64,000 nt of DNA from Candidatus Kerfeldbacteria bacterium (GTDB taxonomy: Bacteria > Patescibacteriota > Patescibacteriia > UBA10025 > JAHIVO01), in NCBI GenBank assembly GCA_016214565.1, contig JACROE010000002.1:536007-600006 (forward strand), read 5' to 3'. Below are positions 1,229 to 54,878 of this stretch, piece by piece. Numbering within the stretch: position 1 is the first letter of the stretch; every line of letters begins with the position of its first letter. A model generated the notes under the pieces. The model searched no databases. It saw only the letters and a program-made list of their open reading frames with translations, and had not been told where the DNA came from. Position numbers and translations under genes: made by a program.

Positions 1229-2317
1229 ATGAAAACCAAAAAAACAACTCATAGCTTTTTTGGCATCCGGCTCCGGGATGAAGCAACTGGCCGGCTCTTT
1301 CGTTTTGAACACGATCTACTGACGCTGGTAATTGTTTTTGCGGTTGTTGCTTTTGGCGTACGTTATTATTTACCACGTTTAGATGCTGCTGGTTTAGATA
1401 GTGTTACGGTGTCATTAAGTAATGAAACAGTTAATACTGATGCGCGTGTCACCGTTTCATTTGAAGTAGGGAATTTATCGAACGGCGAGACGATTGGGAT
1501 TTATTTGGGGGAGGATACGACTGGTGATGAATGGCAGCTCGACGGTATCACGACTAGTCATATTAGCTGTAGTGATAATGGTGCGGGTGAAACGTATACA
1601 GCGACGGCGGTCAATGCGGCGAGTGCCAGCGTGGCCATGAACGTTGCTTTTACTGCTACGACAGTTGGTGCCGGTGCCACGACCGTGACGTGTTTGATCG
1701 GCGATGGCGGCGCTAATAATCCCAACAACCCGACGGTAGCTGATGGTTATTCAGTTGCAGTTGCGACGACTGAGGATGCGGGTGCGGGCATCGCCTACGT
1801 GGGTAATGCAAACGATGTGACGGTGTCAGTTCAACTATTGTCTAATCTAGCATTAACTGTGAATAATGCTGATGGCACCCGCTGCACGACCACCGCTGGT
1901 GTAACGAGTTGTAATTTGGGGACAGTGTTAACAACCACCGTGGCTCAAGGGAATTACGATGTGAATGTTGGCACTAATGCTTCAAGCGGCGCCACGTTGC
2001 AGCTCACCAGCGACGGCCAGCTGCGGAATGGTGCGAATACAATTGCCGCCTATGTTGAGGATTCGGGAGCGATAAGCGCCGGTACGGAGGAATATGGTAT
2101 TGATTTGGCCTCTGATGTCGGGTGGACGGAGCAGGGTAATTTTACGGATGACGCAACTGCCGTACCTACCTCGCCTACTAACGTCGCGACCACTGCCGCT
2201 GAAAATGATATTGCCGGAGCAGATATTACCGTCACGCATAAAGTAGCCATTGATTCGACCGTGCCAGCGTTTCTCTACTCACATATCGTGACCTGGACGG
2301 CCACGGGAAATTTCTAG
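1229..2317 (+). CDS. secreted/membrane-anchored surface protein, family A paralog 2
   Basis: 362-aa ORF with an N-terminal TM segment. Tandem paralog of 149..1207. Confidence 0.75.
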   Translation: MKTKKTTHSFFGIRLRDEATGRLFRFEHDLLTLVIVFAVVAFGVRYYLPRLDAAGLDSVTVSLSNETVNTDARVTVSFEVGNLSNGETIGIYLGEDTTGDEWQLDGITTSHISCSDNGAGETYTATAVNAASASVAMNVAFTATTVGAGATTVTCLIGDGGANNPNNPTVADGYSVAVATTEDAGAGIAYVGNANDVTVSVQLLSNLALTVNNADGTRCTTTAGVTSCNLGTVLTTTVAQGNYDVNVGTNASSGATLQLTSDGQLRNGANTIAAYVEDSGAISAGTEEYGIDLASDVGWTEQGNFTDDATAVPTSPTNVATTAAENDIAGADITVTHKVAIDSTVPAFLYSHIVTWTATGNF

Positions 2318-21104: not shown

Positions 21105-21231
21105 TCAAAACCCCTTGATTTTTTAGGTTTTTCGTGCTATAATTGATTATGGTGGTCTACGTACACGCAATAAAAAGTGTGCCAGGACCCAAGTCCTCTA
21201 CTTTGCAAAGGGGGATTCCTCCCGTAAAACG

Positions 21232-21292
21232 AGCCCGCACCGTGCATGGGCAGCAGCGCGAATGTCGCGCATACATGGTGCGGGCTGTTTTT
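21232..21292 (+). terminator. strong intrinsic terminator (long GC-rich nested hairpin plus T-run)
   Basis: AGCCCGCACC...GGTGCGGGCT outer stem, inner GCGCGA-ATG-TCGCGC hairpin, then GTTTTT. Confidence 0.7.
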
Positions 21293-21293
21293 A

Positions 21294-21323
21294 TTGACAA
21301 AGCAGTGCAGTCAATCGTATACT
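21294..21323 (+). promoter_or_regulatory. sigma70 promoter TTGACA-18-TATACT driving the metK leader
   Basis: Immediately follows the terminator. TSS predicted ~21330, about 20 nt before the riboswitch P1. Confidence 0.55.
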
Positions 21324-47515: not shown

Positions 47516-47548
47516 GAAAAAGCGCAATCTCGGGATGAGACTGCGCTT
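47516..47548 (-). terminator. intrinsic terminator (minus strand) after the Cys-rich mini-protein gene
   Basis: Reverse complement AAGCGCAG...TGCGCTT followed by TTTTCTTTAT. Confidence 0.5.
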
Positions 47549-47574: not shown

Positions 47575-47760
47575 CTAAACGGTGCCGGAGCCGTGGCACG
47601 TCGGACATTCGCCCGACCCACCACAATGAGAACAATCAATTTCAGGGGTCAGGGGCTCGACACCCGTACCGCTGCAATTAGAACACTTACCATTGCCAAC
47701 GTCACAACCAGGCAGATGGTCAGCGCAGTCGGAACAACCCTCTTCGAGGTACTCTCCCAT
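47575..47760 (-). CDS. 61-aa cysteine-rich zinc-finger mini-protein with DnaJ-CR-like CxxCxGxG repeats
   Basis: MGEYLEEGCSDCADHLPGCDVGNGKCSNCSGTGVEPLTPEIDCSHCGGSGECPTCHGSGTV. Perfect extended SD AAAGGAGGTGAT 6 nt upstream of the ATG. Confidence 0.7.
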   Translation of the reverse strand: MGEYLEEGCSDCADHLPGCDVGNGKCSNCSGTGVEPLTPEIDCSHCGGSGECPTCHGSGTV

Positions 47761-47818
47761 GTATATCACCTCCTTTCAGGGAATTGACAGATTGATAGGG
47801 AAATACTAGCGTGAGAGA

Positions 47819-47887
47819 GCAGCGCTGGCAGCGGAACCTATTGATCGTGGACTGCAATTCATTGATCAGGTTCCGTTGCCGCGCTGC
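47819..47887. repeat. long inverted repeat (~20-bp arms, 28-nt loop containing GATCAAT direct repeats) between the ligase and mini-protein genes
   Basis: GCAGCGCTGGCAGCGGAACCT ... AGGTTCCGTTGCCGCGCTGC. Confidence 0.6.
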
Positions 47888-47896
47888 TTTTGTATT

Positions 47897-49282
47897 TCAA
47901 CCATGCGGCGGGTGGTTTACCCGAAACACGGGATTGAAATACGCGTTGCGGGCGCCATGCACCACCGGGTGGGTGCGGGCGTGGAATTCCAACCCCCCGA
48001 GCTGGTCACCAAAGATGTAAATGCCATATTTGGTAAAAAGTTTTTGCGGCATCGGCTGTCCGCTGGGATCAGCCACCAGCCGCTCCTCGACATTGGTGTA
48101 GAAGCGCTGGGCTATCCAGCCATTCTGCACGTCATTCCAGAGCGACTGCTTCCATTTCTGGTCAGACATGGTGTAGCCAAGGATCATCCGACGACCCGAG
48201 GAGCTGGTCGGGTCTTTGAGTACCCAGTCGTGTTTGTCCGCGTACTGGAGCGGGACTGATTGATCGGGAAGGACGATCTGGTCGCCCTGGACAAATCCGA
48301 TTTCCGCGAAGTGAGAATCGAGGAGTTGATAGTCTGCCGTGCCGAGCTCTTGGAGAAAGAGCGTGCGATACGGTTCGATGCGGAAGAGGTACATCCAGAC
48401 CTTATTGCCGAGGAAACGGCGATGGAGGGGGGAGAGGATGCACCGTTCGTCAGGATAGCCGGGCAGTAGCAGGTGGTAGGCGGGATCGCCTTCCTTGATC
48501 CTGCCGCGGATGATGGCCGTAGGCGCGCCAGATTGAATCTCGTCAGGGGCGACGATGGTCGAGGGGATGCCCGCTGCGGTCAGGCAGTCGGCGATGGTTT
48601 TGAAATTGCGCCAGTCGCCGTCATCGCTACGGATGACCACCTGCAGGCGGATTGATTCGCCCGGCAGGCGCTGATATGACGACCACTGGTTGATGCAGCG
48701 CTGGACAATGTCCGTGAAGCTGCGCCGGGTCGGGAACGAAAGCAGGTATGATGTGTTGTACTGGTTGAGGAAATCGGTGGCTGTGATGAGGTCGCCGACA
48801 CCAGCGGGGCGGGTGGTATTGATATCCATCACTTTGAATCCATCCGGCGTGCGGATGGCGTCCAGACGGACAAAGGGGTGGATGATCTGGTATCCCGGGT
48901 CAATCAGGGCGCATTCCCATTCGTTCTTGGTGCAGAGCGAGTGGATCTGCTCAGTGTGTTCCGGGGCCAGTTCTCCCTGGCGGGCTCGTCGGACAATCGC
49001 CATCTGGGCATTGAGCCACCGCGGCCAGGCAGCGGCCAGCCGCTTGAGTTGGTAGTATTCGGTGTGCTCGAGAATGATTGGCGAGAGTACTGGCTGGATT
49101 GCCTCTTCGATCATGGGCCCGGTCGGGGTTTCGATCTGGCGCGTGGGAGAGGGATAGGGATGCCCGCCGCCGGTTAAGGCTTCGAACCGGTTTGGTGTGT
49201 AACGGTAGCTGACGCCACCATTCAAGAGTTCTGCCATGAGTTCATCCATCTGGACGCTCAAGCAGGTGTCGATGCGTTGCAT
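47897..49282 (-). CDS. ATP-grasp-like amidoligase (GSP-synthetase / circularly-permuted ATP-grasp-like), tentative
   Basis: 461 aa. Gly-rich nucleotide loop WVLKDPTSSSGRRMILG (compare KPxxGSxGRGV). C-terminal LEFHART (ExN-like metal site). No closer family recognised by eye. Confidence 0.4.
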   Translation of the reverse strand: MQRIDTCLSVQMDELMAELLNGGVSYRYTPNRFEALTGGGHPYPSPTRQIETPTGPMIEEAIQPVLSPIILEHTEYYQLKRLAAAWPRWLNAQMAIVRRARQGELAPEHTEQIHSLCTKNEWECALIDPGYQIIHPFVRLDAIRTPDGFKVMDINTTRPAGVGDLITATDFLNQYNTSYLLSFPTRRSFTDIVQRCINQWSSYQRLPGESIRLQVVIRSDDGDWRNFKTIADCLTAAGIPSTIVAPDEIQSGAPTAIIRGRIKEGDPAYHLLLPGYPDERCILSPLHRRFLGNKVWMYLFRIEPYRTLFLQELGTADYQLLDSHFAEIGFVQGDQIVLPDQSVPLQYADKHDWVLKDPTSSSGRRMILGYTMSDQKWKQSLWNDVQNGWIAQRFYTNVEERLVADPSGQPMPQKLFTKYGIYIFGDQLGGLEFHARTHPVVHGARNAYFNPVFRVNHPPHG

Positions 49283-49353
49283 AATGCAACCTCCTTATGG
49301 GTTGTGGGTTGGAAGAAATATTAAGTTGTGAACATACGGTTTTTATTTTTTTA

Positions 49354-50250
49354 TCAGATGCCAATGCTGGCAATCTTGCTGCCGGTGCGCACGAGGTCAT
49401 TGCCTTTGATGGTCATGACCACGCCCGCGACTGGCGTTTTGATTTGTGTTTCGGTGAAATCAGTGACTGAGGTGACGGTGGCAATGGTTTGCCCCGCAGT
49501 GACGGTATCCAGCAGATTGATGGTGGGAGCGAAGAGCCCGGCAGTATCAGCGTAGAGGTATTGGGCGGTGAGCATCGGCATGGTTGATAGTGTTACGGTT
49601 GTATTCAGAAATCCATTGCCGGTGGTGATAATGCTCTGCGTGATCCGATCAATTAGTGCGGGAGAAATCATTTGGTAATTGGGCATTTCGATGAACACCG
49701 AGGGGATGCCGGCGGCAGTCAGGCTGCCATCGAAACTACCGGCGAATCGTCGGTCTTCGCCTTTCTTTTCATTGACCTTCCAGACCAGGTCCGGCTGGAG
49801 CAGGGCAATTATTTTTTGTACCGCAGGAGTGGGGACGCCTGATGCATCCGCGGCAAATCCGACGAGGAAGGGGGACTGTCGAGAGAACGTGTGCAGGTCT
49901 ATTACGAAATCTTGCTTGAGCGCGATGTTCATGATGACAGTGGCCAGCCGGCTGGTGAAATCCCCAGTTGGTTTTCCTGGAAAAGCTCGATTGAGATTAG
50001 CGCCTTCGATGGGTTCATTTCGTGTACCCTGGATAATGCCAAATGGGTTGGCTACCGGAATGATGGTGATTGTTCCCTGAATTTTTTCCTGTTGGGCAAT
50101 CAGCTGCTTAATTATCCACAGGGGGGAGAGCTCTCCGCCGTGCTGTACCGCAGTGATGAGTACTCGTGGAGTACCGGAGCCGAACTGAAGAATGGGCAGG
50201 TCGACCGGAATTGTTCCGATCGTGCCGATGGGCTGTAACATTTTTTTCAT
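49354..50250 (-). CDS. succinylglutamate desuccinylase/aspartoacylase (AstE/AspA) family zinc deacylase
   Basis: ITAVQHGGELSP (HxxE Zn site), NLNRAFPG signature, VIDLHT (third Zn ligand), and a C-terminal beta domain. Confidence 0.7.
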   Translation of the reverse strand: MKKMLQPIGTIGTIPVDLPILQFGSGTPRVLITAVQHGGELSPLWIIKQLIAQQEKIQGTITIIPVANPFGIIQGTRNEPIEGANLNRAFPGKPTGDFTSRLATVIMNIALKQDFVIDLHTFSRQSPFLVGFAADASGVPTPAVQKIIALLQPDLVWKVNEKKGEDRRFAGSFDGSLTAAGIPSVFIEMPNYQMISPALIDRITQSIITTGNGFLNTTVTLSTMPMLTAQYLYADTAGLFAPTINLLDTVTAGQTIATVTSVTDFTETQIKTPVAGVVMTIKGNDLVRTGSKIASIGI

Positions 50251-50566
50251 AGATGTGTCGTTATGACATATACAAAAACACCTCTTCTGGCAGAAGAGGC
50301 ATCGCGTGTAGCTTAGTTAGTTTGATTGCGTGCTAGGCAATACTTTTGTGCACACGTAAAGATACCTCTTCGCCAGAGAAGAAGTGAAAATGACGGCGAT
50401 ACCAGGTTTGTGTGATAAAAGTATTCATAGCAACGGGTATTGTAGCGCAGGAAATGGTTGGTGTCAAATTATTCTCAGACCTTGCCAGATTATTCAGCTT
50501 GCAGTAGGCTTGAAGAAAGACACAAACAACAACCAATAACCGTTCACCACAATTCATGGAGGGTTT

Positions 50567-51007
50567 ATGCTAAAGCAGAAACCTTTAGTTTTAGTCGTTG
50601 ACGATCACCCAGAGGCTCGTCGCATTCTGAGCCAAATGGTTGACAGCATTACCGGCAAGCCGTATCGGGTACTTGAATCAGAGTACGGCGATCACGCTGT
50701 CAAAGCGTTCGAATTCGCCCTTGCGAAAAGGCCGGCGGTTGTTATCGCTCAGGGCCATGTCTGGTCTTGCGATAAACTGATCGATCGGCTCGGCGGATCT
50801 CAGCTCGAAACGAGGGTACTGACCGTTACGATTCAGTATCGCGGCGAGCAGCCCAGTGACAAGGTTTGGCCAGCGCTGGTGAATGGCGAGCTCGTCGAAG
50901 CATTCGACAAAAGGCAGCTTGCTGCAGCACTGCGCGAAACACTGGCGCCACCCCCGAAATCTACTTCCCGACAGGAAGACCTCCAGCTAGCGCCCGCCAT
51001 GGCCTAA
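50567..51007 (+). CDS. receiver (REC)-like domain protein, possibly a pseudo-receiver
   Basis: LVLVVDDHPEARRIL is the beta1/DD motif of CheY-like domains. By eye the expected phospho-acceptor Asp after beta3 (PAVVIAQGH) is absent. SD GGAGGG. Confidence 0.5.
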   Translation: MLKQKPLVLVVDDHPEARRILSQMVDSITGKPYRVLESEYGDHAVKAFEFALAKRPAVVIAQGHVWSCDKLIDRLGGSQLETRVLTVTIQYRGEQPSDKVWPALVNGELVEAFDKRQLAAALRETLAPPPKSTSRQEDLQLAPAMA

Positions 51008-51136: not shown

Positions 51137-51514
51137 ATGAACCCCATCATCGCCGCAGGGCCGGTTATTATCGAGAATGACAAGGTGCTCGTGAATAAGC
51201 ACGGAGACACTCCGTTTTGGAAATTCCCGGGTGGACGGCTGGAGACGTTTGATGAATTGGATTTAGCAAAGTGTGCGGCACGGGAAGTGAAAGAGGAAAT
51301 GGGAGTTGAGATTGAAATTATCCGGCCGATGAGCACCTTGATGACGAAGAAAGGTGATGATGTGATTGTGTTGGTGCATTATCTAGCCAAACGGATTGGC
51401 GAAGTGAGGCCAGGCTCAGACATCCGGGAGTGGACGTGGCTGGATATCCATCATCTGCCGGCTGACGTGGCACCCAATGTACAGCAGATTGTGGAGGAGT
51501 ATTTGGGTATGTAG
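51137..51514 (+). CDS. NUDIX hydrolase
   Basis: Nudix box GGRLETFDELDLAKCAAREVKEEMGV (Gx5Ex7REUxEExGU). Confidence 0.85.
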   Translation: MNPIIAAGPVIIENDKVLVNKHGDTPFWKFPGGRLETFDELDLAKCAAREVKEEMGVEIEIIRPMSTLMTKKGDDVIVLVHYLAKRIGEVRPGSDIREWTWLDIHHLPADVAPNVQQIVEEYLGM

Positions 51515-54320: not shown

Positions 54321-54836
54321 ATGAAAAAAAGTACTGCTTTTTTTAAGTACTGCCCGGTCTGTGGCGCGCCGACGAAATTAAGCACCGGCGTCCATCGGCA
54401 TCCGAAATGCACTCGGTGTGACTTTACTTTTTATCAAAATTCGAAACCAACCGCATCTATTATTCCCATTAATGCTCGGGGCGAAATAATGTTAGTTAAG
54501 CGGGGGATCAATCCGCGTAAAGGGTATTGGGATACTCCGGGCGGGTTTCTCGAAGAATGGGAAACACCAGAGGTCGGCGCGCGGCGGGAGCTCAAAGAGG
54601 AGCTCGGCGTCACGCTCAAAAATGTAAAACTGCTTGGTGTATATCTGGATGCCTATGTTGAGCACTATCGGGCAGCCACCATGAATATTGTTTATGTGGC
54701 TGAAATTGCCAGTGGCCGGATCAAGCCGCAGGATGATGTGGCAGGGTATCGGTGGTTTAGGCCAGTGCAGCTCCCGTGGAAACGATTGGCATTTCCCTGG
54801 ATTCGGCAGGCGCTCAAGGATTATCTCAGGAACTAA
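54321..54836 (+). CDS. NUDIX hydrolase with N-terminal zinc ribbon (NudC-like)
   Basis: CPVCGAPTKLSTGVHRHPKCTRCDF zinc ribbon, then Nudix box GGFLEEWETPEVGARRELKEELGV. Confidence 0.8.
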   Translation: MKKSTAFFKYCPVCGAPTKLSTGVHRHPKCTRCDFTFYQNSKPTASIIPINARGEIMLVKRGINPRKGYWDTPGGFLEEWETPEVGARRELKEELGVTLKNVKLLGVYLDAYVEHYRAATMNIVYVAEIASGRIKPQDDVAGYRWFRPVQLPWKRLAFPWIRQALKDYLRN

Positions 54837-54870
54837 AAAACCGCCAGGCTTCTGCTCGGCGGTTTTTAAT
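54836..54870. terminator. bidirectional intrinsic terminator between convergent genes
   Basis: AAAAACCGCC-aggcttctgctc-GGCGGTTTTTAATTT. Confidence 0.65.
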
Positions 54871-54878
54871 TTACTGAT

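Follow-up and report, generated by a model that had tools for sequence, protein, structure and literature searches.

The main finding of this analysis was a two-gene operon specific to Patescibacteria, in which a zinc deacylase of the AstE/AspA family is encoded directly upstream of an ATP-grasp-type ligase. Taken as a whole, the reading that we favour, and hold to be somewhat probable, is that of a conserved deacylase and ligase operon working on a small amide metabolite, with a leader attenuator in front of it and an antisense sRNA behind it.

The window, meaning the whole stretch of 64,000 nucleotides that was analysed, has its source genome in Candidatus Kerfeldbacteria (Patescibacteria). 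The three minus-strand ORFs, the protein motifs and the inverted repeat described in an earlier note on this DNA were all present where it had placed them. The ORFs were the following:

49354..50250, minus strand: AstE/AspA-family zinc amidohydrolase (deacylase), 298 aa
47897..49282, minus strand: ligase of a divergent, circularly permuted ATP-grasp carboxylate-amine type, 461 aa, from a family without a name
47575..47760, minus strand: orphan zinc-ribbon mini-protein, 61 aa counted from the ATG, flanked by the sRNA −35 box and the operon terminator

To begin with, the grouping of the hydrolase with the ligase was borne out, the two being a tight co-inherited pair: in every related locus with ligase-upstream sequence, the hydrolase was located directly 5′ of the ligase and in the same orientation. 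Moreover, the percentage identities of both proteins among relatives dropped in parallel from 75% to 33%, apparently as in vertical inheritance, and the operon was single-copy and syntenic in small streamlined genomes, with no mobile-element context at the locus. The hydrolases formed a discrete clade of about 37 proteins, co-extensive with the ligase family and of about equal size. One locus (L037) harboured a member of this clade without any ligase, and in another (L038) the clade hydrolase was followed by a short divergent ligase variant, not by the canonical ligase. No conserved biosynthetic neighbour genes were found across the family. Furthermore, the theme of a deacylase next to a ligase recurs, as a sister ligase family adjoins a GT2 glycosyltransferase and an M20 deacylase, the latter being non-homologous to the hydrolase considered here.

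The identification of the hydrolase as an AstE/AspA-type zinc deacylase, previously made from its motifs (VQHGGE, NLNRAFPG and DLHT), was confirmed by a profile search above threshold and by alignment of those motifs. In particular, residues 27–205 matched the Pfam model AstE_AspA_cat (PF24827; 83.8 bits, cutoff of 25, E = 1.5e−23), while the zinc-binding HxxE with its second His and the Arg contacting the substrate carboxylate (NxxR) were all present. The motifs HGGE, NLNRAFPG and DLHT aligned with the same motifs of the structures 2qj8 and 3cdx, and they were kept in relatives. The nearest models and structures were those of DoeB/EutE N-acetyl-L-2,4-diaminobutyrate deacetylases, with which the hydrolase shares the Pfam domain above threshold and the aligned HxxE, NLNR and DLH elements. 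Unlike them, it has no ectoine-degradation context, belongs to a separate clade of Patescibacteria and scores far under the equivalog cutoff (74.2 bits vs. 402.7 for TIGR02994, DoeB, its best NCBIfam model). None of the characterised equivalogs (DoeB, AstE, AspA or MpaA) includes the hydrolase, all the NCBIfam scores being far below their cutoffs.

The 461-aa protein, in which an ATP-grasp-like loop had been noticed (KDPTSSSGRRM, residues 356–366), is predicted to be an ATP-grasp-type amide ligase and not a housekeeping enzyme, a prediction that came from its structure and that sequence alone could not provide. It had no match in Pfam and NCBIfam even at E ≤ 1, including the models GSP_synth, CP_ATPgrasp_1/2 and GSH_synth, and no match in the PDB by sequence or profile, while its hhalign comparison with YgiC was not significant. 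The structure model (pLDDT of 92.3, with dips at loops) adopted the fold of the circularly permuted ATP-grasp clade, of the GSS/GspS/YgiC/Cp1B structural type and not of the RimK/TTL type. The characterised members of this clade join small carboxylates to small amines. Additionally, a profile of the ligase family found three distant relatives (P0061, P0067 and P0069) at E-values from 1e−14 to 1e−17, which themselves matched GSP_synth, CP_ATPgrasp_1 and CP_ATPgrasp_2, the last with up to 32.0 bits, exactly its cutoff; through them, the ligase is tied transitively by sequence to these named families. As to candidates for the catalytic motifs of the clade (an N-terminal [E/D]xN Mg site, an ATP-binding Lys and a flexible Gly/Ser-rich loop), within the ligase family D153-I-N155, K356 together with SSSGRR, K418, E432 and R436 were invariant or nearly so, and the family had further invariant motifs of its own (RLD, DINxTRPAGxG, RIKEG, SPLxRRxxGxK and VHGAR).

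Among the closest known systems are the glutathionylspermidine synthetase/amidase of E. coli (Gss) and the trypanothione synthetase-amidase. However, the Gss amidase is a fused CHAP cysteine hydrolase, whereas here a separate AstE/AspA zinc enzyme is encoded upstream, and no similarity of the ligase to Gss-type sequences was detected in the Pfam and PDB searches. The eukaryotic-type glutathione/homoglutathione synthetases, the YgiC/YjfC peptide-spermidine ligases and the fungal Cp1B of the E-64 pathway showed 10–15% identity to the ligase, whose family in Patescibacteria differs from all of them in having its own invariant motifs and an obligate deacylase partner.

Pairs of an ATP-grasp ligase and an M14/AstE-like hydrolase have also been predicted to carry out protein tagging and de-tagging. 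In such a case, the two enzymes would act like RimK or TTL/CCP on the C-terminus of a conserved cellular protein encoded elsewhere, which would agree with the fact that small-molecule pathway genes are not linked to the locus. We consider this unlikely, as the ligase falls in the GSS/GspS/YgiC/Cp1B fold clade and not with RimK/TTL, and the nearest characterised relatives of the hydrolase are small-molecule deacetylases. RimK/LysX-type systems would combine a classical RimK-like fold, without permutation, with a small carrier that is conserved, acidic at its tail and encoded nearby, and this combination was not found at this locus.

The earlier note had proposed the 61-aa mini-protein as the carrier or precursor on which the ligase would add, and the hydrolase remove, amino-acid tags. 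This resembled the LysW/LysX/LysK system, in which LysW, a small zinc-ribbon protein, is the carrier of a pathway with an ATP-grasp ligase and a metallo-deacylase. The three genes are indeed co-oriented and share one downstream terminator, and the mini-protein has both zinc-ribbon motifs and the strong SD that had been reported (AAAGGAGGTGAT). Its nine Cys residues include four CxxC pairs, three of them as CxxCxGxG (CSNCSGTG, CSHCGGSG and CPTCHGSG) and one as a bare CxxC. Thus, the described likeness to the DnaJ cysteine-rich region holds as a resemblance of motifs (the three CxxCxGxG), but not as membership by score, since the match to DnaJ_CXXCXGXG (PF00684) was below threshold (22.3 bits vs. 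a cutoff of 32.7). However, no homologue of the mini-protein was found in any of more than 30 related loci, nor any relative except itself among 5.8 billion protein clusters, and one related locus (L008) had an unrelated 32-aa ORF in its slot. The three genes are therefore not conserved together, the finding by which the earlier note had said that its proposal should fall. With the mini-protein absent from all relatives, the carrier or tag idea fails, and we regard it as extremely improbable. The mini-protein ORF is an insertion into the 3′ UTR that is specific to this lineage, not a conserved partner.

Upstream of the hydrolase, a set of regulatory elements was found in the 5′ leader of the operon:

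50439..50467, minus strand: operon promoter TTGACA-N17-TACAAT, 11/12 consensus positions
50333..50428, minus strand: nearly leaderless, conserved small leader ORF, 31 aa, MNTFITQTWYRRHFHFFSGEEVSLRVHKSIA
50360..50372, minus strand: antiterminator segment, leader codons 19–23, complementary to the 5′ terminator arm of the attenuator
50268..50303, minus strand: intrinsic terminator (attenuator) from the terminator scan, 12-bp stem and T-run, located after the leader ORF and before the hydrolase start

The conserved small ORF and the terminator in this region (50277..50467) had been missed in the earlier note. The operon promoter was one of only nine exact TTGACA-N16–18-TAnnnT sites in the 64 kb, where about 1.5 were expected, and 14 related loci had it in the same position. 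The ATG of the leader ORF lies 10 nt after the −10 hexamer, with no SD, and an equivalent leader ORF of 22–36 aa was present in 17 loci (the window and 16 further ones). Each leader peptide had an 8-residue block made almost entirely of R, H, W, Y and F, with a nearly invariant His; the leader ORF was the best-scoring ORF with such a block in the window, and its Arg codons varied synonymously between loci. A hairpin with a T-run was also found at the attenuator position in related loci, and the full set of promoter, leader ORF and terminator was recorded in 17 loci, the window included. Furthermore, an alternative pairing between the leader ORF and the terminator was detected. In the window, this antiterminator duplex had −18.9 kcal/mol and a z of −4.3 against dinucleotide shuffles, and the equivalent pairing, always involving codons ~19–29, was matched by ≤5% of shuffles in 13 of 15 loci (z from −1.7 to −4.8), while it was no better than shuffled sequences in the other two. 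The mean z over all 15 loci was −2.9, and the pairing also appeared in whole-leader MFE folds.

An ORF after the promoter, a terminator before the first structural gene and a pairing that overlaps the ORF are thus all in place, and we read these elements as a putative leader-peptide attenuator. To our knowledge, no such element has been described in Patescibacteria. It resembles the trp, his and phe leader-peptide attenuators in its short promoter-proximal ORF, followed by an intrinsic terminator with a mutually exclusive pairing that involves the ORF. In contrast to them, the ORF is nearly leaderless and no run of identical regulatory codons was found in the leader ORFs, which have the mixed R/H/W/Y/F block instead. 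The likeness to SpeFL is only compositional: YRRHFHFF in the window and YRRHRIH in L025 stand against the HIRRXXH sensor and the Phe-rich effector of SpeFL, and the exact HIRRXXH motif was absent from the leader peptides. Moreover, SpeFL acts through Rho and stalls at the stop codon, whereas the leader described here precedes an intrinsic terminator.

The conservation of the small ORF at the peptide level in 17 loci would also fit a RiPP-like arrangement. The substrate would then be the upstream 22–36-aa aromatic and basic peptide, which the ATP-grasp enzyme would modify or ligate and the metallohydrolase would trim, and the hairpin behind its gene would only determine how much precursor is made relative to the enzymes. 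RiPP clusters typically show this order, with a precursor gene, then a partial terminator and then the enzymes, and ATP-grasp ligases with M14-like peptidases were reportedly proposed by Iyer et al. in 2009 as peptide-modifying pairs. We see this arrangement as improbable here, and retain the attenuator as the preferred reading of the leader.

The 3′ end of the operon presented a second group of elements:

47819..47887, both strands folded: inverted repeat, a long ~69-nt hairpin far beyond chance
47784..47812, plus strand (opposite to the operon): sRNA promoter TTGACA-N17-TAGCGT
47813..47897, plus strand: candidate ~80-nt antisense sRNA, the hairpin followed by TTTTGTATTT, abutting the ligase stop codon
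47520..47548, minus strand: sense-strand intrinsic terminator from the terminator scan, 12-bp stem and T-run, which ends the operon transcript

The inverted repeat proved to be real: as a minus-strand RNA it folded with −41.6 kcal/mol (z of −5.85, with none of 200 shuffles as good), and as a plus-strand RNA with −50 kcal/mol (z of −7.5). Its link to the mini-protein did not hold, as it is kept in relatives without the mini-protein and its opposite strand has a promoter and a T-run, both conserved. Both of these signals had escaped the first reading of the sequence. Of the 19 pairs in the consensus hairpin, 11 showed compensatory double changes, and its covariance model detected the hairpin once, and only once, in each locus and in all cases at the operon 3′ end, while Rfam at E ≤ 1 gave only two chance-level matches elsewhere in the region and none to the hairpin. 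In relatives, an equivalent sense terminator was found directly after the sRNA promoter. The T-run after the hairpin was present in about 9–11 of 14 loci and poor or absent in about 3–5 of them.

Hairpins are common at operon 3′ ends, and this one might be only an operon terminator or an mRNA-stabilising stem-loop, with no function for the opposite-strand hexamers. The −10 box of the window (TAGCGT) is weak, the site was not reported by a generic promoter scan, and 4 of the 17 hairpins were more stable on the sense strand. On the other hand, no T-run follows the hairpin on the sense strand, which has its real terminator further downstream. Moreover, the opposite-strand signals, a TTGACA-like −35, a 16–18-nt spacer (N17 at a fixed distance from the hairpin) and a TAnnnT −10 located ~7 nt before it, were kept in at least 12 distinct loci with diverged spacers, the window's copy being another of the nine exact sites in 64 kb. 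The strand bias of G-U pairs (32 on the plus, or sRNA, strand vs. 12 on the other), the greater stability of 13 of the 17 hairpins on the sRNA strand and the T-runs also favour the opposite strand, so that a simple terminator or stabiliser seems unlikely. We therefore read the inverted repeat as a putative convergent antisense sRNA gene of ~80 nt, a predicted transcript that has a promoter and a terminator to itself, a structure kept among loci and signals specific to its strand. It would resemble the convergent cis-antisense sRNAs of RatA/txpA and SR4/bsrG, which are short, highly structured and complementary over their full length to the 3′ UTR of the mRNA they are paired with. Unlike in those pairs, the partner mRNA encodes two enzymes and not a small toxic peptide, and the sRNA is essentially a single hairpin of ~69 nt.

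Convergent, 3′-overlapping antisense RNAs are found in some type I toxin-antitoxin loci, and the one predicted here has that arrangement. A toxin-antitoxin-like or defence module could be imagined, in which the enzyme pair would be harmful (e.g. through a futile ATP cycle, as ligase and hydrolase could cycle ATP) and the antisense RNA its antidote, with the operon under double negative control. We judge this very unlikely: a PADLOC search gave no match, and the single-copy, syntenic locus, free of mobile-element context, shows the parallel identities of vertical inheritance.

Within the favoured reading, the gene pair, the fold of the ligase, the conservation of all the RNA elements, the alternative pairing and the covariation are shown, whereas the nature of the substrate, the sequence of the two reactions, the signal sensed by the leader and the expression of the sRNA are inferred. 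Both enzymes would act on one small amide-linked metabolite. Preferably, the deacylase would first strip an N-acyl group, exposing an amine or carboxylate, and the ligase would then form a new amide bond at the expense of ATP. A close alternative would be that the two enzymes form and break one and the same bond in a cycle, the way glutathionylspermidine synthetase/amidase does; a point against it is that ATP could be wasted where a ligase and a hydrolase with one bond in common are transcribed together. Regarding expression, the strong promoter would drive the nearly leaderless ORF of 22–36 codons with its His-centred Arg/Trp/Tyr/Phe block. A ribosome pausing at this block would keep the 3′ part of the ORF available for pairing with the 5′ terminator arm, and this antiterminator pairing would let transcription read into the enzymes; the leader peptide may sense a ligand in the manner of SpeFL. 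From the convergent promoter, a hairpin RNA of ~80 nt, fully complementary to the operon 3′ UTR, would be expected to reduce mRNA stability or to interfere with transcription. A more ambitious version, which we hold to be possible but doubtful, would join these parts into one new regulatory and metabolic unit of Patescibacteria. In it, the nearly leaderless nascent peptide, through its His-centred Arg/aromatic block, would sense a small metabolite or an amino-acid shortage within the ribosome and switch the attenuator, the sRNA would counter-regulate this mRNA from the 3′ end, and the enzymes would build or remodel a small amide by deacylation and then ligation, much like the deacetylase and ligase steps by which mycothiol and bacillithiol are made.

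The genomes of Patescibacteria are tiny, their capacity for biosynthesis is small and hardly any of their regulation has been characterised. The present analysis corrects an attractive carrier-protein hypothesis, defines a family without a database model as a predicted glutathione-synthetase-like amide ligase, and adds a candidate antisense sRNA that is clean, occurs in single copy and has a consensus promoter, together with a putative leader-peptide attenuator that may be the first clear one from Patescibacteria and that has a short conserved peptide motif. Finally, a ligase locked to a specific deacylase points to a small metabolite that these episymbionts make or salvage.

The three minus-strand open reading frames (ORFs) described in the earlier note within 47575..50250 were all found as stated, with the motifs quoted for them:

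49354..50250, minus strand: hydrolase ORF, 298 aa, with HGGE, NLNRAFPG and DLHT
47897..49282, minus strand: ligase ORF, 461 aa, with KDPTSSSGRRM
47575..47760, minus strand: mini-protein ORF, 61 aa, with nine cysteines, three CxxCxGxG motifs and the Shine-Dalgarno sequence (SD) AAAGGAGGTGAT

Related loci came from look-ups of the exact proteins and from scanning GTDB genomes and JGI metagenomes for patterns. The pairing of ligase and hydrolase was borne out, as, wherever DNA upstream of the ligase was available, the hydrolase gene lay immediately 5′ of the ligase gene and in the same orientation. These loci include L021, a related locus in which a recognisable hydrolase C-terminus, overlooked by BLAST, was present. 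The identities of both proteins fell in step, from 75% to ~33%. The deacylase is the fixed partner of the ligase, and the pairing is obligate. The cassette family was rare, with 8 loci in 185,579 species genomes, and appears to be limited to Patescibacteria-type genomes.

The assignment of the hydrolase to the AstE/AspA family of zinc hydrolases was clearly supported by a match to Pfam PF24827 (83.8 bits), while the protein fell below every equivalog threshold of the NCBIfam models. The nearest models and solved structures were DoeB/EutE N-acetyl-diaminobutyrate deacetylases and uncharacterised family members, with whose motifs the HxxE, NLNR and DLH of the hydrolase aligned, and DoeB-type deacylases are among the closest known systems. 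Moreover, its clade was discrete, comprising ~37 proteins followed by a gap in similarity, and many of these shared contigs with ligase-family members. Two exceptions to the pairing were found within this clade. In L037 (3501-4430), a clade hydrolase (34% identity) stood alone, without a ligase and with a convergent NUDIX gene directly downstream; the window, too, has a NUDIX gene (51137-51514), at ~0.9 kb from the cassette. In L038 (4480-5370), a clade hydrolase with 52% identity preceded a 296-aa protein in which, of the ligase, just the RLD...ExE-RPAGxG core was kept (hhalign E 5.5e-5); this protein is perhaps a ligase in minimal or degenerate form.

Regarding the 461-aa protein, its reading as an ATP-grasp ligase was upheld by the fold search only, every sequence route being without result. 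In particular, no match was found in Pfam, NCBIfam or PDB with phmmer and profile searches, even when a 25-member profile was used, nor was a significant match to E. coli YgiC obtained by hhalign. The AlphaFold model, built from the family alignment, was of high confidence, with a pLDDT of 92.3 and a pTM of 0.92. An exhaustive profile search retrieved ~35 representatives of the family proper and hundreds of distant relatives; among these, some matched CP_ATPgrasp_1/2 and GSP_synth and others were fusions, either of ligases in tandem or with a PKS. The family is previously undescribed. Its invariant residues (including RLD, D153-I-N155-x-T-R-P-A-G, K356 with a Ser/Gly-rich loop, K418, E432, R436 and VHGAR) form a candidate ATP-grasp active site, consistent with an active enzyme. 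Characterised members of the same fold clade couple small carboxylates with small amines, such as gamma-Glu-Cys with Gly or beta-Ala, peptide with spermidine, and epoxysuccinate with amino acid. The GSS/YgiC/Cp1B ligases are among the closest known systems, and the GspS synthetase/amidase shares the ligase fold, although its hydrolase partner is of another kind. Furthermore, a sister ligase family (profile E ~1e-18) occurred in a conserved array of M20 peptidase/deacylase, GT2 glycosyltransferase and ligase in two loci (L039, 36-2916; L040, 1494-5428), and in the latter a zinc-ribbon protein of 53 aa (CPKC...CPYC, with a basic C-terminus) was encoded just upstream.

Upstream of the hydrolase gene, a short leader was delimited by the following features:

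50467..50439, minus strand: operon promoter TTGACA-N17-TACAAT, from the promoter scan
50428..50333, minus strand: leader peptide of the window, MNTFITQTWYRRHFHFFSGEEVSLRVHKSIA
50303..50277, minus strand: hairpin resembling a terminator, with a T-run, immediately upstream of the hydrolase ATG

The leader was compared between the window and the 14 main-clade loci with enough upstream DNA, L036 and L038 being added later; in L038, the leader ORF and terminator were retained upstream of the hydrolase. In the window and the 14 main-clade loci, an ATG without an SD was located 6-18 nt after the −10 hexamer, starting an ORF of 22-36 codons that closed before the terminator. Every leader peptide carried an eight-residue block made almost wholly of R, H, W, Y and F around a nearly invariant His (e.g. 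WYRRHFHF, HRWYFRRF, FWRHYHY or YRRHYWR), and the peptides were enriched in His (2.7-fold), Asn (2.6-fold) and Arg (1.6-fold). Since the Arg codons varied synonymously between loci, selection is considered to act on the leader peptide. Moreover, leader codons ~19-29 could pair with the 5′ arm of the terminator, with at most 5% of shuffles as good in 13 of the 15 loci (mean z −2.9), and folds of the whole leader gave the same alternative structure. Judged from its sequence, the leader is built like a translation-coupled transcription attenuator, in which a ribosome pause at the His/Arg/aromatic block, perhaps triggered by a shortage of charged tRNA or by a ligand, would probably turn the operon on. 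The closest known systems include classical and SpeFL-type leader peptides. Unlike classical attenuators, the leader has no homo-codon run. In its Arg/His-plus-aromatic composition it resembles, without being a member of that group, SpeFL, an ornithine-sensing arrest peptide with an HIRRXXH sensor and a Phe-rich effector. In one distant sub-clade, an SD-led small ORF replaced the aromatic/basic leader upstream of the hydrolase (L022, ~1440-1500; L023, ~210-300), both ORFs sharing SLGG[QM]GPH and each having a terminator before it. A 146-aa ORF (50567-51007, plus strand), divergent from the operon promoter, had only a weak N-terminal receiver-domain match (E 0.009) and, in other loci, did not adjoin the cassette.

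The inverted repeat at 47819..47887, between the ligase and mini-protein genes, proved real, as it folded far better than shuffles on both the minus strand (z −5.85) and the plus strand (z −7.5). The RNA processing or attenuation role proposed for it was not upheld, the repeat being read instead as a conserved convergent RNA gene, with these features in the window:

47784..47812, plus strand (opposite to the operon): sRNA promoter, an exact TTGACA-N16-18-TAnnnT site
47813..47897, plus strand: candidate sRNA of ~80 nt, with promoter, T-run, covariation and G-U bias
47520..47548: sense terminator

A long hairpin was present 3′ of the operon in nearly all loci. In L001, an additional 129-aa ORF separates it from the ligase, and the hairpin is therefore a marker of the operon 3′ end. 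An alignment of nine sequences gave a 19-bp consensus stem with compensatory double changes in 11 pairs. The covariance model found exactly one copy per locus, always at the operon 3′ end, also recovering distant loci left out of model building; a dispersed repeat was rejected, since no further copy appeared in the 64-kb window or in any locus. In at least 12 distinct loci, the opposite strand bore TTGACA or a one-off variant of it, separated by 16-18 nt of diverged sequence from a TAnnnT that stood ~7 nt ahead of the stem. A T-run followed most hairpins on the opposite strand but not on the operon strand, whose true terminator lay beyond the opposite-strand promoter. Furthermore, G-U pairs numbered 32 on the opposite strand vs. 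12 on the sense strand, and 13 of 17 hairpins were more stable on the former. Together, the covariation, single copy per locus, opposite-strand promoter, T-run, G-U bias and stability indicate a candidate sRNA of ~80 nt, with full complementarity to the operon 3′ UTR, which may destabilise the mRNA or interfere with transcription. Its closest known systems include 3′-overlapping cis-antisense RNAs, and no Rfam family matched the hairpin (E ≤ 1). Action in trans on the operon's leader was discarded, as complementarity did not exceed that of shuffles (z about 0).

The sRNA promoter was one of nine exact consensus sites in the 64 kb (~1.5 expected), so the genome is considered to use near-consensus sigma-70 promoters, making promoter prediction unusually reliable here. 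Seven further sites were located at 52, 6479, 21294, 25068, 41956, 44046 and 62926 (+). Two other long inverted repeats, at 21225-21293 (27-nt arms), stopping immediately before the promoter at 21294, and at 54826-54877 (20-nt arms), are probably terminators.

The earlier note had proposed a tag ligation/removal system with the mini-protein as carrier or precursor. However, motif and tblastn scans of all related loci found no homologue of the mini-protein, and only the protein itself was recovered among 5.8 billion protein clusters, which rules it out as a conserved partner. Since only the hydrolase-ligase pair is kept in relatives, the three-gene carrier model, which the earlier note had made dependent on the three genes being conserved together, fails. 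In relatives, the ligase was followed by a 129-aa ORF, an M29 peptidase, a 116-aa ORF or nothing, these genes being unrelated to the mini-protein and to one another. The mini-protein ORF is flanked by the sRNA −35 box and the sense terminator and is therefore regarded as an insertion into the operon 3′ UTR. In L008, a relative with a 75%-identical ligase, a 32-aa ORF (2191-2289, plus strand) unrelated to the mini-protein, with its own SD (MFDKPTEPTALSPATVPEQETRRPIIIIGPCC), occupied exactly this slot, with the same two elements on either side. Small ORFs seem to use the operon 3′ UTR as a landing pad.

Other neighbours occurred in a single sub-clade or a few lineages only and were missing from the window; they were thus discarded as functional partners. 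In one sub-clade (L001, L004, L007 and L010), argS and then a GT4 glycosyltransferase gene lay directly 3′ of the cassette; leader peptides are Arg-rich, yet the argS linkage was missing from the window and other clades. TrpR-like HTH genes (PF01371, YerC/YecD-type) occurred 0.3-2.5 kb from the cassette in four lineages:

L001, 1513-1866: TrpR-like HTH gene
L004, 1653-1991: TrpR-like HTH gene
L022, 966-1283: TrpR-like HTH gene
L033, 524-811: TrpR-like HTH gene

A defence system was also rejected, as PADLOC gave no match. The locus is neither of the LysW/LysX type nor of the RimK type, and no paper was found joining AstE with a circularly permuted ATP-grasp or RimK.

The anatomy of the locus is very probably as described here, while the chemistry of the enzyme pair is proposed tentatively. 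Both enzymes would act on one small amide metabolite, deacylation coming first and ATP-dependent re-ligation second. This order is favoured because the gene order is fixed, the nearest hydrolase relatives are N-acetyl-amine deacetylases and the sister ligase family lies in an M20 deacylase - GT2 - ligase array. Such an array recalls the logic of glycosyltransferase, deacetylase and ligase by which mycothiol and bacillithiol are made. Alternatively, a Gss-like cycle would make and break the same bond, which would account for the unusually tight double control. To our knowledge, dual RNA-level control of this sort has not been reported in Patescibacteria. The overall explanation, an obligate deacylase-ligase pair acting on a small amide under a putative attenuator and a candidate antisense sRNA, is considered somewhat probable.
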